Virus record (IMG/VR): IMGVR_UViG_2541047784_000010
Coordinates: 1 to 40,741 of that record
Length of the DNA: 40,741 nucleotides
Source of the DNA: a virus
Taxonomy: Duplodnaviria > Heunggongvirae > Uroviricota > Caudoviricetes
Reading direction: 5' to 3' (one strand)
Within the stretch, counting starts at the first letter, position 1, and each line of letters begins with the position of its first letter. Below, one piece after another: positions 1 to 40,741 of the stretch. The position numbers and the translations under genes were made by a program. The notes beneath the pieces were generated by a model. That model saw nothing but the letters and a program-made list of their open reading frames with translations, ran no database searches and was not told where the DNA came from.

Positions 1-157
1 GGTCAGTACGATAATATTTGGCTTTCCTTTGGTACTGTATTCAGTCGGCGTAAAGTCTGAGAACGCAACGTTTGTTTTGGTTGCTTTCAGCTTTACATCA
101 TCTGCCGCATGAGCAGCAAATGATGAGCATGCAGGTGTAGGTTTTGTAACCTGTTGA

Positions 158-1462
158 CTATGCTTGTTTAATTACATCCGATCCCACAGCGTGGGGCATG
201 GATGGGGCAAACTCACTCAATTTCTGGTTTAAAATGGATACCTGATCCTGATTGTTTTCTGCCATCCACGATCCGTAAACGCGATAAACCATCTGAGCAT
301 CAGAGTGTCCCATTTGCTTCGCGATGAAGTTAGGGTTAGCTCCAGCGGTCAAAGACCAACATGCATAAGTGTGCCTGGACTGATATGCTTTGCGGTAGCG
401 AATCCCGGCGCGTCGCATTGCAGTTTCCCATGACTGATTAATCGACCCAACTGCATAATGGTGCCCGGCAAGGCCATTACGCGTAACGATTTGCGGATTG
501 AAAACAAAAGTGCACGGATGCATTTCAGTTCGACCATACTCACGAAGTTTCACTTCAACCTGATACTGCTTACCAAGCCGTGTCATTTCAGCCTGATTCT
601 TAAGCACGTCTATTGCAGGTTGAATAAGGTTGATAACACGGTTTGTTCCCGCTTCGGTTTTTGGAAGAGTGAACTCTTTCGTTAATGTGTGGTTTCTTCT
701 GATCGTCATTGTCCCAGCCTTCAGGTCTATATCTTCCCATGCCAGAGAAACCAACTCTCCGTGGCGAACTCCCGTATAAACAGCCAGTGACCACATATTT
801 TTTAATTGCTGATGCTTAAATGCGTTAATCAACCTGACAAATTCATCACGGGTTAACGGATCAGGTTCCGTTCGTGATCTCTTCAGTTGCGAAATGGCTG
901 CGAACGGATTTTCTTTGATGTATCCGCTGTCGGCTGCGAACTGAAACATCCCCGCCATGGTGTTCATGTAGTTATTAACAGTTGGCACGGAACGTCCCTT
1001 AATGGGTGTTTTTTGCCCACGTTTCAGAACGTGATATCCGGTCAGCAAATCCTTTCGTATGAACAGTAGCTCTTCCTGAGTCACAGCAGATGCAAGTCTG
1101 TTGCCTCCGATTCGGGGAACCATATTTCTTACAATGGAGCTGTAACGCCCCATCGCATTGGTACTGATTTCCAGCTTTTTCAGATCCAGCCATTTCTCAG
1201 CCAGGTCTGCGACGGTAATTTCCTTACTTTCCGCACCAAATTTTCTCAGGTTGGGAGAGTCCGGAAACTGAGCGGCATAGTCGAAATTACCCGTCTTAAT
1301 GGAAAAACAAACAGATGCTCGTAGCTCGCCAGCTATTTTCCTGTTTTTTGGTGTATCCGGCACACCGAGACTTTCCCGCACTCGTGTGCCTTTATACATG
1401 AACCATATGCGGAGTGATCCGCCATGGTTCTCAACGCCTGTTGGGTATGCTGTCTTAGCCAT
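158..1462 (-). CDS. int: Tyrosine-type site-specific integrase
   Basis: 434-aa ORF; C-terminal region has tyrosine-recombinase signature (SRHTYACW, MGHSDAQMVYRVYGSW); strong RBS AGGAGGG just upstream of ATG at 1462; adjacent upstream xis-like gene; first int-like gene at the prophage end. Confidence 0.9.
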   Translation of the reverse strand: MAKTAYPTGVENHGGSLRIWFMYKGTRVRESLGVPDTPKNRKIAGELRASVCFSIKTGNFDYAAQFPDSPNLRKFGAESKEITVADLAEKWLDLKKLEISTNAMGRYSSIVRNMVPRIGGNRLASAVTQEELLFIRKDLLTGYHVLKRGQKTPIKGRSVPTVNNYMNTMAGMFQFAADSGYIKENPFAAISQLKRSRTEPDPLTRDEFVRLINAFKHQQLKNMWSLAVYTGVRHGELVSLAWEDIDLKAGTMTIRRNHTLTKEFTLPKTEAGTNRVINLIQPAIDVLKNQAEMTRLGKQYQVEVKLREYGRTEMHPCTFVFNPQIVTRNGLAGHHYAVGSINQSWETAMRRAGIRYRKAYQSRHTYACWSLTAGANPNFIAKQMGHSDAQMVYRVYGSWMAENNQDQVSILNQKLSEFAPSMPHAVGSDVIKQA

Positions 1463-1507: not shown

Positions 1508-1753
1508 TCATCGACGCGCACCAGGCTGTTTTTTTGACATACTCTCAACCCACTGGTCGATAGCCTTGCGGTTATACATGCATTCGCTGTTTTCTTTTGG
1601 AATACCGTCCGGTGCAACATGGAGATATTCACGACCGACAAGCCAGGATTGTTTACGTGCTCTCTCAATGGTTCCTGGGCGTAAACCTGTAATTTCGATC
1701 AGTTTTTGCTCTGTCACCCAGTCGTTGGGCACAATTAAGTTAACTTCGCTCAT
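1508..1753 (-). CDS. xis: Excisionase-like small DNA-binding protein (start trimmed to MSEVNLIV)
   Basis: 81 aa, basic C-terminus, GREYL motif as in lambda Xis (DGREYLF); sits immediately upstream of int in the same orientation. Confidence 0.65.
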   Translation of the reverse strand: MSEVNLIVPNDWVTEQKLIEITGLRPGTIERARKQSWLVGREYLHVAPDGIPKENSECMYNRKAIDQWVESMSKKQPGARR

Positions 1754-9885: not shown

Positions 9886-10833
9886 ATGAGCAATACAGCA
9901 AAAATCTACGATTTCAGCGCCGCACACGAGCGCAGGAGCAACAGGATGGAGAACCAGAAAACTGGTTACATTCCGTTGTACCGGAGCATTCTGAAACAGT
10001 CATGGGCGAAAGATGTTTATCTTCGCACCCTGTGGGAAAACCTTCTCCTGAATGCTGCCAGAAAGCCATACAAAGCGAATTTCAAAGGTCATGAATGGCA
10101 TCTGCAACCCGGTCAACTGGTTGTGACAGCAGCTGATTTAGGTCTTCAGTTATGCGACAGGCATGGCAAGCCGGCAAGCCGTGATCAGGTTGAGCGGATG
10201 CTTCAGGTTTTTGTGAAAGAGGGGATGATCTCCATTGATGGAGAGAAGCAAAAAGGTCGTGTGATCACCATCACAAATTACCATGAATATGCTCAAAAAA
10301 TGGACGATTCACCCGCACATGAAGCCGCACAAACAACCGCACATGAAGCCGCACATGATGAAGCCAGTAATGGCGCGGCTTTCAGCGTACATGCCACACA
10401 TGAAAGCGCACATGAAGCCGCACAAACAACCGCACATCATGAACAAGAAGGTATTAACAAGAATATAAATAATACCCCCCTACCCCCCAATGGGGGAGGC
10501 GATGGGCAGGTTAAACCTGAACGTCGCAAGGCAGAACGAATCGACTACGAATCCTTCCTGAACGCCTACAACACCGAAGTCGGTGACAGACTGCCACACG
10601 CTGTTGCGGTCAACGAGAAACGAAAACGCCGCCTGAAGAAAATCATCCCGCAACTGAAAACGCCAAACGTTGACGGTTTCAGAGCGTATGTCAGGGCGTT
10701 TGTGCATCAGGCTAAGCCGTTTTACTTCGGAGACAACGACACGGGCTGGACGGCCGATTTTGATTACCTGCTGAGGGAAGACTCGTTAACGGGAGTTCGG
10801 GAAGGGAAGTTTGCAGACAGGGGGATTGCATGA
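9886..10833 (+). CDS. O: Replication initiator, lambda O / P22 gene 18-like
   Basis: 315 aa; position after cII; central His/Ala-rich repeats encoded by DNA iterons (ori inside gene, as in lambda O); basic C-terminal part. Confidence 0.75.
10310..10500 (+). repeat. Origin of replication: iterons plus AT-rich segment inside O gene
   Basis: Three or more copies of CGCACATGAAGCCGCACA within 140 bp, followed by AT-rich AAGAAGGTATTAACAAGAATATAAATAATA and C6/G5 tract. Confidence 0.7.
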
Positions 10834-36643: not shown

Positions 36644-36700
36644 TGCCCAAAATTCACCGTAGCCATGCTGCGGCCATTCCTTGTATCTGGAGCAAATCAA

Positions 36701-39178
36701 ATGACAGATTCAATAAATGCCAATGTTGTAGTGAGTATGCCTTCGCAACTCTTCACTATGGCGCGTTCTTTTAAAGCCGTAGCCAATGGCAAAATTTATA
36801 TCGGTAAAATTGACACTGACCCGGTAAATCCTGAAAACCAGATTCAGGTTTATGTGGAGAACGAAGACGGTTCTCACGTCCCTGTTTCGCAACCAATCAT
36901 CATTAACGCTGCTGGATATCCGGTATATAACGGACAGATTGCCAAGTTCGTAACTGTGCAAGGCCATTCTATGGCTGTTTATGATGCATATGGTGCACAG
37001 CAGTTTTATTTTCCTAATGTGCTGAAGTATGACCCCGATCAGCTACGGCCGCAATTAGAAGATCCAGATGGCGCTAAAAAATATCCTGAGTTGCAGATGG
37101 CACGATGGAGAGATTGTGGAGATGTTAGAGGGTGGGGAGCAAAAATAGATGGGGTAACAGATGATTCAGATGCTTTTATTAAAGCTTTAAACTCTGGAAG
37201 GTCGGTTATAACAATTCCTGAAGGAATATGCATCATCAAGAAGAATATTAACATTCCGGAAGGATGTTCACTGGTTGGATCTGGCATTGATTATTGGGAC
37301 ACATATAGACCAGCGCCTGAAAGATTATTAAAAAGTTGGAGTAAAGGAACCCATCTTGTATTTACTGGTGATGGAGAAAAAAACAAATATTTTTTTAACA
37401 TCTCTAATGAAAGACCAGCTAAAATTGTTGAAGGGATATCTTGTAAGTTCACTGAGTTTACGAATGAAGATTCTGTAGGTGTTACTCCTGCTACACCAAA
37501 AGCCATGAGCGTAGCTGTTAGTATCAACAGGGCATCACAGTTACGCAATCTGAGAATAATGGTAAGTAAAAATGGTATTGAAGGATACAATAACCCTGAT
37601 TCTTATTCATTGGGTGATAACTGGGATATAGGGTTGCATGTATACGATAGCTGTGATTCAGTTATTGATAACGTACAGATTGTCGGCTATTGGAGGGTAA
37701 AAGGACTACTACTGACAGAAAATGACGGGAGCCTTTCAATGAAGGGAAATCCTGAAAAAACGCACTTTAATAACGTTTATGTCCAGTCAGGAATCGCGAT
37801 AAGGAATAGCCCTCAGATTGATCTTGTAAGTAATACTGAAAGCTCAGTGACATTTAAACATAAAAAGTCGATGAGAATAACTTCAGTTAAACAGTTTAAA
37901 ATTGCTGGCAGTGAATCAGTATATACGTATTCAGATGCATCATTTGATGGAACTAACATCACACTATCTGGTATTTCTCCTGAAATACAAGGTACAATAA
38001 GTGTAATCAGGTTTCCGTCAATTGGTAATAATTTTAGCGGGACTGTTTTTGAGAATACAGTAGCCACTACTCTTGATCATACATCAGGTAAGCCATCAGA
38101 ATACTTTGGCCTTCCTGCATCCTTTGCATTAGAGGTTGATGGTTTCCCTGTTCGTAATTTAAGGTTTGATAAATTCAAAGCTCAAACAACATTTGATAAA
38201 GGAAATTGCATTTTTGGTGATTGCCGTGATGTTAAAATAACATCATCTGAGTTTGAAAATGGAATTATGATTGCGTATAACCAGACCGAGACTCAGGGTT
38301 ATACAGGAAATCTTAGATTTTTTGCTTCTGATCTTCAGAGCAGCGTTAACACAAGTGAGTTTAAACCAAGAGACGCATTTGTAGACAATAGACAAATAAA
38401 AACGGAGTTTACTGATGGTTCGTTCATTATAAAGAACTGGAGGCCTACAGATACAAAAATACAATGGTCGTCTGGAGTAGATGCTATTGTTCTTAGAGAG
38501 TCACCTGACGAACAATCAAACGGAAATATTTACGGGTATCACATTGATGGTAAAAGATGGATTAATGTTAGTGGATATAACAAAGATATAAATATTTCAT
38601 CAAGAAACTTAAGCGTAAAAAACCATGGTGATGACTCTGCAGTTATTAATATATTCGGCGACTCTGGAAATATTGCCATTAAAGGTAATTTTTCACCAAT
38701 TATTGATAACAGCAAATCTCTTGGTGCACCATCATTTAGATGGGCTCAGATTTATTCTGCATCCGGGACTATAAGCACATCAGATGAAACACTTAAAACA
38801 ATATATGACATTACTCAGGCAGAGCGTGATGCTGCGCTGGAAATAAAGGGAATTATATGCAAGTTCAGGTTTAATGAGTCGATTAATTTTAAAGGATTGG
38901 AGTTATCAAGGTATCATTTTGGAGTTGGCGCTCAAACCGTAGGAGATATTCTTAGAAAGCATGGTTTAAATCCTGAGCAATATGCTTTTTGGTGTTACGA
39001 TGAATGGCCAGACGTATGGGATGAAGAGGTGATAACTGAAGAGAGCACAGATCCTGATACAGGTGAGAAAATTTATTCTCAATATAAAACAGGAAATATG
39101 ATTCTTGTAAAAAAAGCAGGTGGACGCTACGGAATTCGTTATGACGAATTGGCTATGTTTATATTAATGGCAATGTAG
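36701..39178 (+). CDS. Tailspike: P22-type head-binding domain + beta-helix receptor domain + C-terminal intramolecular chaperone domain
   Basis: 825 aa from [18 protein letters not shown]; N-terminal ~110 aa match P22 gp9 head-binding domain as recalled; C-terminal ~130 aa carry endosialidase-chaperone (peptidase S74-like) pattern with SDETLK autocleavage motif. Confidence 0.9.
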
Positions 39179-39197
39179 TTGCAATAAATGCAGTATA

Positions 39198-39226
39198 TCC
39201 CGCATGAAAACTGCGGGATTGTTTTT
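39198..39226 (+). terminator. Rho-independent terminator after tailspike
   Basis: TCCCGCA-tgaaaac-TGCGGGA followed by TTGTTTTT. Confidence 0.85.
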
Positions 39227-39910
39227 ATCTAGTGTATTTGTGAGTTTTAAATAAAATTTGGTATGGATTCTTGCATCGTAGTGAACGCATGATTACCTAT
39301 GAAACAAAACTGAGACACACAAAGCTTTGCACTGGATTGCAAGGCTTTGTGCTCTTCTATGCTGAGTGGTGGGGCATATATGGGGCAAATCACACAGTTA
39401 GATCTACGGAGAACTACGGTGCTTGATGTTTCAGTCAACTCTAACTGCCTGTTATCTGGTGTGCTCTTGGGCGATCTTTGTCATTTATGAAATATACATG
39501 GTCATATGCAGCCATACCAGATGCCAGTATCAAAGATATCGAGGTACTTACGACACTTTTCTTTAATGCAGACTTCATAAATGTTCCTCTTCTTATTGTA
39601 CTTAATTCCAAAGTAATTTTACGAAGAGAAATAAGTGAATGTAAGTGAAGTTAGTCACATAAAGAGATAGCAGATTTAGCTAAAAAAAGGGAAATAACAG
39701 TCCATAACGCGTTGACATTACTTTCTGTTCTACTAAGTAATTTCTCGCCGATAAACAACTAATCTATTGATATTTAATAAATTATTGTATTTCACTGACA
39801 AATTGCCGAGCTGAGATCATAAATAATCATGCAACAGGTTATGAAAATGCATAAATATGTGATGGCTGTCACTTATTTATTTCAAGAAATATATCGCCTG
39901 GAAACAACGC

Positions 39911-39979: not shown

Positions 39980-40741
39980 TCAACTAGCTAAAGCATTCAT
40001 CGTGTTGTCCGTGTTCATACCCGTGTGCCTTTGACAACGGTACTCCTTAGAAACTCTCTTCGGACTGTTGCCGAAATGTTTGCGAAACGCATAAATAAAA
40101 TAAGATGTACTGGCATAACCGCATTGTTCAGCAATTTTATTGACTGAACCTTCTACGCGTATCAAATTTTTCGCGTGCTGCATTCTGGCATCTAAAAGAA
40201 TCTGTGAGAATGTCGTTTGCTCTTGCTTTAGTTTTTTCTTCAACAGGCTTTCACTGATGTACAGGCAGTCACAAATATCTTTCAGCTTCCATGGGTGCGC
40301 CAGCTTCATGTTGACAATATTTCTTACTTTCCCGGAAACGGATAGCACACCGTTAGTTAATAGTGTAATGAAACCTTTGCATGCGGCAAAAATAGACAGG
40401 CAAGAAAAAAGCAAAAGCTCTGAAAAATTATGATGATTGCGTTCTTCCGAGTTGAGATAAGCAATCATTTCATTAAGCAATCCAGTCGGTACATTTGAAG
40501 CACGTAAAAACTTCGCAGGAACAGGCATCGTCACTGTCTGGATGTTAGTGCATTGTAGATATTTTTTAATGGTATTTTCATTAAATCCGATTTCTTTGAA
40601 ATGCCGCTCATAAGGTTCAAAATGCGTGCGAACAGCGTTATCTACCATCAGGATCTCGCCGTCAGAGAAGGCGTAATCTTTATCTAAAATGTTAGCGTTG
40701 AAGGCATGATGAATAAATATAACAGAACAAACGAGCGACAT
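39980..40741 (-). CDS. AraC-family transcriptional regulator (start codon at window edge; may be truncated)
   Basis: 253 aa; C-terminal AraC HTH (ISESLLKKKLKQEQTTFSQILLDARMQHAKNLI...GYASTSYFIYAFRKHFGNSP); AT-rich context. Confidence 0.85.
   Translation of the reverse strand: MSLVCSVIFIHHAFNANILDKDYAFSDGEILMVDNAVRTHFEPYERHFKEIGFNENTIKKYLQCTNIQTVTMPVPAKFLRASNVPTGLLNEMIAYLNSEERNHHNFSELLLFSCLSIFAACKGFITLLTNGVLSVSGKVRNIVNMKLAHPWKLKDICDCLYISESLLKKKLKQEQTTFSQILLDARMQHAKNLIRVEGSVNKIAEQCGYASTSYFIYAFRKHFGNSPKRVSKEYRCQRHTGMNTDNTMNALAS

Follow-up and report, generated by a model that had tools for sequence, protein, structure and literature searches.

Paired TGGGGCA heptamers as candidate integrase arm-type sites at both ends of a P22-like Escherichia coli prophage

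The two ends of a P22-like E. coli prophage carry near-copies of one short sequence, the first inside the 3' end of the integrase gene (int) and the second at the opposite end of the element. We conclude that these near-copies very probably constitute four arm-type sites for the heterobivalent tyrosine integrase that the prophage itself encodes. A sequence-only reading of this DNA had suggested that the P and P' arms might carry Int arm-type sites, and the position of the repeats, their conservation in comparisons and the domains present in Int lend this idea strong support. Short repeats distinct from the core lie on both attP arms, away from the crossover, as arm-type sites do. The window, by which we mean the whole 40,741-nucleotide stretch of DNA that was analysed, holds 39.4 kb of prophage at approximately 121 to 39508. 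Its features are collected in Table 1.

Table 1. Features of the prophage ends, the candidate arm-type sites and the flanking host DNA (positions in the window)
Feature	Position	Strand	Remarks
Host ydeN (sulfatase-like) coding sequence, ~codon 25 onward	1-120	(-)	Left (B) side of attL; colinear with SA186
attL overlap, phage allele TGATGAG	121-127	(+)	Putative 7-bp crossover region; ydeN junction here
Phage-borne fliE 3' end, ATG AGC ATG CAG GTG TAG (..MSMQV, stop)	123-140	(+)	Matches K-12 caggaagTGATGAGCATGCAGGTGTAG
C' core-type half-site CATGCAG (putative)	128-134	(+)	Within fliE 3'-end copy
int	158-1462	(-)	434-aa tyrosine integrase, predicted IntBPP-1 / Arm-DNA-bind_2 type
P'1, candidate arm-type site TGGGGCA	192-198	(+)	In int 3' end
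P'2, candidate arm-type site TGGGGCA	203-209	(+)	11 bp from P'1
xis, excisionase DUF1233	1508-1753	(-)	Pfam PF06806, E 2e-31; open frame up to 1792
Tailspike gene	36665-39178		P22-type head-binding N-terminus
Outer (left) boundary of int-att module	39359-39369		Mosaic joint with tailspike module at ~39358/39359
P1, candidate arm-type site TGGGGCA	39370-39376	(+)	P arm, -137 from overlap
P2, candidate arm-type site TGGGGCA	39381-39387	(+)	P arm, -126 from overlap; 11 bp from P1
Conserved P-arm box GCTCTTGGGCGATCTTTGTCATTTATGAAA	39463-39492	(+)	Three imperfect ~10-bp units
C core-type half-site CATGGTCATA (putative)	39497-39506	(+)	Inverted-repeat relation to CATGCAG / ATGAGCATG over the overlap
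attR overlap, host (ydeN) allele TGCAGCC	39507-39513	(+)	From alignment of attR to the empty site
Host ydeN, first ~24 codons (MKSALKKSVVSTSISLILASGMAA)	39509-39578	(-)	Rest of the gene split off by the prophage
ydeO, right flank	39980-40741	(-)

The near-copies have the sequences first reported for them. The left copy is GTGGGGCATGGATGGGGCAAACTCAC at 191 to 216. The right copy is GTGGGGCATATATGGGGCAAATCAC, which is 25 nucleotides long and so occupies 39369 to 39393, rather than ending at 39394 as the sequence-only reading had it. Each contains two direct repeats of TGGGGCA, as was claimed, at 192 to 209 and 39370 to 39387. When the right end of the prophage (39179 to 39508) is aligned locally with positions 123 to 1462, the best match joins 39369-39399 to 191-222 with 27 identities in 32 positions, one gap and a score of 37. 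Over 300 shuffles the corresponding scores averaged 20.5 (sd 2.1, maximum 27), which places the observed match at z ~8, and the second-best alignment of the same two segments scores 20, a background value. In the lineage of the window the similarity runs ~10 nucleotides beyond the second heptamer, and this extension is not explained by heptamer binding alone.

Such a match might also arise by chance, or because the coding sequence of the Int C-terminal tail is constrained, given that one of the copies is coding and that single TGGGGCA heptamers are not enriched in the whole window (6 observed, 4.5 expected). The paired pattern behaves differently. Exact TGGGGCA-N4-TGGGGCA is found in two places only in the 40.7 kb, namely the two near-copies, each less than 140 nucleotides from an att junction. 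With two mismatches allowed, 0.18 occurrences would be expected by chance, and the observed copies have no mismatch. Because lone heptamers are not enriched, the signal resides in the paired and positioned layout. Moreover, the P-arm copy is noncoding yet conserved in 12 of 13 attPs, and in int the heptamer bases do not change although the residues encoded there do. Together with the score of the local alignment, these points make chance or coding constraint an extremely improbable source of the repeat.

The constraint within int is visible in the codons. Read on the minus strand, P'1 is xxT-GCC-CCA (..F A P) and P'2 is xTG-CCC-CAx (M P H), so that the two heptamers occupy different frames. 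Among homologues, the residue preceding P'1 varies between F, A, R and Y, and the third base of its codon is always T. The first residue of P'2 varies between M, L and V, with TG as the last two bases of its codon in every case. The two prolines of the Int tail are encoded by CCA and CCC, respectively, without exception among the homologues compared. The heptamer bases are therefore invariant, synonymous positions included, while neighbouring residues change. An inverted TGGGNCA that arises from the catalytic "MGH" codons (306-312) serves as a control, and in the same sequences it varies at the third base of the Gly codon. This pattern indicates that the constraint on the int tail acts on the DNA and not on the protein, and the tail appears to be a clean case of a coding end constrained by an overlapping putative DNA-binding site.

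Distances from the crossover can be given since the att sites are now mapped. The sequence-only reading had found neither core in the window, and for the window by itself this stands: a direct-repeat search of its entire length returned no att-like repeat. The reason is that ATG is all that attL and attR have in common. Comparison with an empty-site genome and with a free phage, however, reveals the cores. Alignment of the window ends with the uninfected strain SA186, a check that had been proposed, resolved both junctions, with attB in ydeN reading ..GAGCAGCAAATGCAGCCATACC... Positions 1 to 120 align to the uninterrupted SA186 gene up to ...GAGCAGCAAA, and attL continues as ..GAGCAGCAAA TGATGAG CATGCAGGTGTAG..; attR reads ..CATGGTCATA TGCAGCC ATACC... 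The prophage breaks ydeN at approximately codon 24. The first 157 nucleotides had been described as free of tRNA-like sequence, which agrees with the ydeN coding sequence found at 1-120 and with the result of ARAGORN, which detects no tRNA gene anywhere in the window.

We infer the position of the 7-bp overlap TGATGAG from three landmarks, which are the start of the identity between attP and fliE, the ydeN junction, and the distance to a conserved P-arm box that acts as a ruler. The last distance is 44 nucleotides here as against 45 to the annotated 7-bp att site of Stx2 converting phage I, and the box lies 44-45 nucleotides upstream of annotated or mapped crossovers in that phage, in the window and the free phage IdasGreatGrand, and in Gifsy-2. 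Stx2 phage I also has an analogous CATG..CATG on both sides of its annotated att site. Relative to the predicted overlap, the P' pair lies at +71/+82, in the last int codons, and the P pair at -137/-126. Once the phage is circular, the pairs lie 208 bp apart with the core between them, and all four heptamers share one orientation.

Insertion in ydeN seems to be an exception for this integrase. An int gene with 99.7% nucleotide identity adjoins fliE in three complete genomes. Because int abuts fliE elsewhere, and because the phage DNA directly beside the left junction copies the end of fliE, we take the fliE 3' end to be the usual target. On insertion there, the phage-borne copy restores fliE, as judged from the sequences. 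One genome, OZ040490, contains the same prophage with the same tailspike at fliE; its attL reads fliE..GAAGTGATGTCCATGCAGGTGTAG-int and its attR ..CATGGTCATATGATGTCCATGCAGGTGTAG, and the match of the window to this attR stops at 39508. The attP of the free phage IdasGreatGrand (Int 99.5% identical) is uninterrupted, with the order GTGGGGCATATATGGGGCAAATCAC, 113 nucleotides, catATGATGTCCATGCAGGTGTAG, the int stop codon, and GTGGGGCATGGATGGGGCAAACTCAC. By contrast with these fliE insertions, ydeN junctions are absent from all 5,426 complete E. coli genomes searched, and ydeN is therefore apparently a rare secondary site.

The two overlaps at ydeN, TGATGAG in attL and TGCAGCC in attR, differ at 4 of 7 positions. 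A heteroduplex product would yield this combination, a phage overlap in attL and a host overlap in attR, in its top-strand daughter. A crossover within the ATG microhomology explains the ydeN junctions equally well. Because the overlaps mismatch at 4 of 7 positions, excision from ydeN is probably impaired. Near-identical phages also carry two overlap alleles; the window has TGATGAG, and IdasGreatGrand and OZ040490 have TGATGTC. Each allele preserves the Ser of the FliE tail (AGC and TCC, respectively). The two alleles may represent a specificity switch that matches host fliE alleles.

Conservation of the heptamer pairs was assessed in 13 attPs whose integrases are 60-99% identical in amino acid sequence. 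These are from the window, IdasGreatGrand, CobraSix, CharmingMan, Klebsiella phages RCIP0034 and Mulock, SaltyDalty, Fraca, phi315, Tritos, Stx2 converting phage I (933W type), Gifsy-2 and Yersinia phage YP3. Nearly all of 80 close IMG/VR relatives end at the int stop codon and were of no use for P arms. In 12 of the 13 attPs the int 3' end contains a TGGGGCA pair with 11-bp spacing and the P arm contains one to three more, all of them co-oriented, with two or three tandem pairs in CharmingMan, phi315 and Stx2 phage I. The distance between the P' pair and the nearest P pair is 206-211 bp in all 12. Their cores are unrelated, as are the attB sites of Gifsy-2 and the 933W-type Stx phages, and the DNA between the pairs is mostly unalignable, so the putative sites appear to follow the arm domain of the integrase and not the core or attB. 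The compared attPs are kin, and their conservation is partly inherited; this weighs less heavily given that the flanking DNA can no longer be aligned. The remaining attP, that of YP3, has a P' pair and a core and lacks a P-arm pair within 750 nucleotides. Its core resembles those of SaltyDalty and Gifsy-2, and unrelated DNA replaces the P pair and half of the conserved box. Either the YP3 attP is defective or the P pair is dispensable in some phages.

The outer edge of the P pair coincides closely with the edge of the int-att module. More than 20 genomes share the tailspike gene and downstream DNA only as far as 39351-39364, beyond which another att module begins. The P arm of strain FLI21 has 75% identity overall, with both heptamers intact, and its homology to the window starts at 39366, directly ahead of the pair. 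Because the joints and homology limits fall within ~10 nucleotides outside it, the P pair is the outermost conserved element of the module, and such a boundary fits what would be expected for the outermost required element of attP. M160133 is an example of these genomes: there the same tailspike and terminator are joined, at a sharp mosaic joint, to a different att module near dacD.

The heptamer CTATGCT had been said to follow both copies closely. It is present at 158-164, where it includes the int stop codon, and at 39357-39363. The description is correct for the minus strand only; on the plus strand CTATGCT precedes the copies by 26 and 5 nucleotides. As a shared element it has to be dropped, given that near-identical IdasGreatGrand has GGCGCTA instead and that the right-hand match spans the mosaic joint. 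The CTATGCT match between the two ends is a coincidence.

A second origin proposed for the right-end copy is an integrase gene that formerly occupied the site, perhaps in a tandem or previous prophage, and has since decayed to this piece of its 3' end. Translated from the minus strand, the copy reads FAPYMPHHSA between two stop codons, which resembles the Int tail EFAPSMPHAVGSDVIKQA with its stop codon, and both end in GCATAG. Genuine int remnants do exist, as in the cryptic prophage PR-G of K-12 (intG) and in the flank of attR in OZ040490. True remnants nevertheless look different: they comprise at least 150 nucleotides of int plus a copy of the core and lie on the host side of the core. The right-end copy is on the phage side, 120-140 nucleotides inside attR, and belongs to an attP that is contiguous in the free phage. 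Its similarity to int ends after ~32 nucleotides, and the rest of 39179-39508 is not int-like. No earlier int-bearing element was seen at ydeN among the 5,426 genomes, two or three tandem P-arm pairs in relatives are not expected from a gene remnant, and the CTATGCT shared by the two ends is unconserved and crosses a mosaic joint. We regard descent from an earlier integrase gene as very unlikely.

The K-12 gene intG (b1936) illustrates the difference. It is the decayed 3' end of the same type of integrase, lies beside fliE, and retains the fliE 3'-end copy and the P' heptamer pair (K-12 2012502-2012780). Unlike the functional-looking attP part at the right end of the window, intG, in the host chromosome, is genuinely what is left of a gene. 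Many E. coli carry similar "integrase | fliE" fragments, which are remnants of the same integrase type and likewise keep the fliE 3'-end copy and the P' pair. The remnant in OZ040490 (2860-3030 of the attR locus) has lost one G from its second heptamer.

Int itself has a domain suited to arm binding. Pfam identifies PF12167 (Arm-DNA-bind_2, formerly DUF3596) at amino acids 7-70 with an E value of 1e-25 and a score of 89.8 (cut-off 22), and PF00589 at amino acids 203-396. The PF12167 domain is also present in the Gifsy-2, 933W-type, Rac and phiCTX integrases. Overall, the protein is 99.5% identical to the integrase of IdasGreatGrand, 65.7% to that of Gifsy-2 and 64-65% to those of 933W type. 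When the proteins from IdasGreatGrand and CobraSix and the Rac-type Int are set aside, identity to the window Int is 76-82% in the arm domain, 64-74% in the catalytic domain and 44-67% in the core-binding domain. The arm domain is thus the best-conserved Int domain across the family. A conserved arm domain combined with a divergent core-binding domain fits a shared arm motif and diverged core specificity. In a search of PDB sequences, only the catalytic and core-binding parts gave matches (lambda Int, E 5e-4), and the arm domain gave none.

On the basis of the PF12167 domain and its relatedness to the Gifsy-2 and Stx-phage proteins, Int is predicted to belong to the IntBPP-1 subgroup. Proteins of Gifsy-2 and Stx2a appear as putative integrases in the treatment of this subgroup by Smyshlyaev et al. 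(2021; PMC8138268). That work describes the arm-binding domain of the subgroup, and not the DNA sites of that domain (PMC8138268).

The arrangement has several features in common with attP of phage lambda. In both, the two arms carry short non-core repeats at distances of tens to ~140 bp from the crossover, with neighbouring sites spaced by about one turn of the helix. The P' sites border on the 3' end of int or extend into it, and each integrase possesses a distinct N-terminal domain for binding the arms. Lambda P1/P2 and P'1-P'3 occupy a similar range of distances from the crossover. The differences are that the repeat is TGGGGCA here and C/AAGTCACTAT in lambda, that the arm domain belongs to another family, here PF12167, and that the predicted P' sites here are inside the int reading frame. 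Lambda attP has five arm sites with P2 inverted relative to the others, as against four predicted sites in a single orientation here, and details of the intasome may differ on account of this co-orientation.

By analogy with lambda, the N-terminal Arm-DNA-bind_2 domains of four Int protomers would each hold one heptamer, and the core-binding and catalytic domains of each protomer would hold one core half-site. Heptamers 11 bp apart would present the same face of the helix. Bends introduced by IHF and/or Xis between arm and core could fold the arms onto the core to form the intasome. After integration, the P' pair would stay in attL and the P pair in attR, and both would be needed again for excision. 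The sequence data show where the heptamers lie, how they are conserved, that the DNA is constrained and that Int has the arm domain; binding by Int, its stoichiometry, and the roles of the sites in integration and excision are proposed from the lambda model.

Some partner other than Int, such as the DUF1233 excisionase or a host factor, might instead bind the heptamer pairs. The excisionase gene is carried next to int, an identical gene is annotated as an excisionase in OZ040490, and xis and int occur jointly across the integrase family. The Xis of Gifsy-1 was considered as a guide to the conserved box and set aside, since no Gifsy-1 entry was among the homologues listed for the window Xis. 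Because Xis co-occurs and co-diverges with Int, the comparative data alone do not separate the two as binding partners. The layout, on the other hand, favours Int. Directionality factors of the lambda paradigm occupy a single arm, whereas these heptamers are present on both arms at lambda-like arm-site distances. Their number, four, matches an Int tetramer, and in phiCTX the motif shifts along with the arm domain. The heptamer is G+C-rich, unlike IHF or Fis sites. The conserved box, which is confined to the P arm, is a better Xis candidate. For these reasons we consider a partner other than Int unlikely, and prefer Int as the protein that would bind the heptamers.

The conserved box is present in 10 of the 13 attPs, whose cores are unrelated, and is a candidate site for Xis or IHF. 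A scan with the IHF consensus gave only weak matches, each with one mismatch, at 39388-39400 and 147-159, which are further candidates for accessory bending sites.

Related phages show how far the layout extends. In Stx2 converting phage I (AP004402, 933W type; Int 64%), annotated 31-bp repeats correspond to its P-arm TGGGGCA pairs. These repeats are named "region III, arrangement g/gg" and are annotated without a function, beside the 7-bp att site GTTTCAA. Unlike the window, this phage has three P-arm pairs, another insertion site, and a core unrelated to fliE.

The Pseudomonas phage phiCTX, whose integrase is 30% identical and has the same Pfam domain, carries an 11-bp-spaced pair on each side of its annotated core, in the same orientation (1664-1692 and 1837-1854 of the extracted locus). 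It differs in that the heptamer is TGGGAAC (TGGGAAC-N4-TGGGAAC), 173 bp instead of ~208 separate the pairs, the P' pair is downstream of int and not inside it, and the target is a tRNA gene. For the Rac prophage of K-12 (IntR 42%), the attP arms were taken from attL and attR. Both arms carry TGGGGCA/GGGGGCA pairs: the P' arm has TGGGGCAaattGGGGGCA, and the P arm has TGGGGCA and two GGGGCA 11 bp apart. Escherichia phage 683R6 was considered as a free Rac-type attP and set aside, as its record is prophage-derived and includes ttcA. Distant Arm-DNA-bind_2 members have kept the layout, with a motif that is shifted in phiCTX or relaxed to GGGGCA in Rac.

Arm-type sites belong to the textbook description of lambda-like site-specific recombination and to the ordinary make-up of temperate phages. 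Our search of the literature on arm-type sites of Stx, 933W, Gifsy, Rac or DUF3596 integrases, and on the motif, found no description of them. It is close to an even question, tilting slightly to the negative, whether the window offers the first explicit arm-site code of the whole Arm-DNA-bind_2/IntBPP-1 family, with ydeN junctions that perhaps preserve the products of Int exchange. If it does, the code would consist of two TGGGGCA one helical turn apart on each arm, co-oriented and with ~208 bp from P to P', and it would span 933W-type Stx phages, Gifsy-2, Fels-1, phiP27 and Rac. The P' pair, lying in two frames of the C-terminal int codons, would then dictate a tail of the form A-P-x-(M/L/V)-P-(H/Q). 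Similarly, exchange at ydeN over an overlap mismatched at 4 of 7 positions would mark the position of top-strand cleavage.

Mapping of the att sites places this prophage off target, where it disrupts ydeN rather than using fliE. TGGGGCA-N4-TGGGGCA on both arms, ~208 bp apart, would be a signature of the limits of attP in an integrase family that is large and medically relevant, including Stx phages, Gifsy-2, Fels-1 and Rac. Such a signature could aid the delimitation of prophage ends and the design of attP/Int integration tools.

Two other elements were observed in the window. Directly past the tailspike stop codon, at 39196-39225, a G+C-rich inverted repeat is followed by a T run, and this looks like an intrinsic terminator between the tailspike gene and the P arm. 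In the replication gene region, a cluster of 12-nucleotide periodic repeats (CCGCACATGAAG / CCGCACAAACAA) occurs at 10314-10437, and these repeats may be replication-origin iterons.
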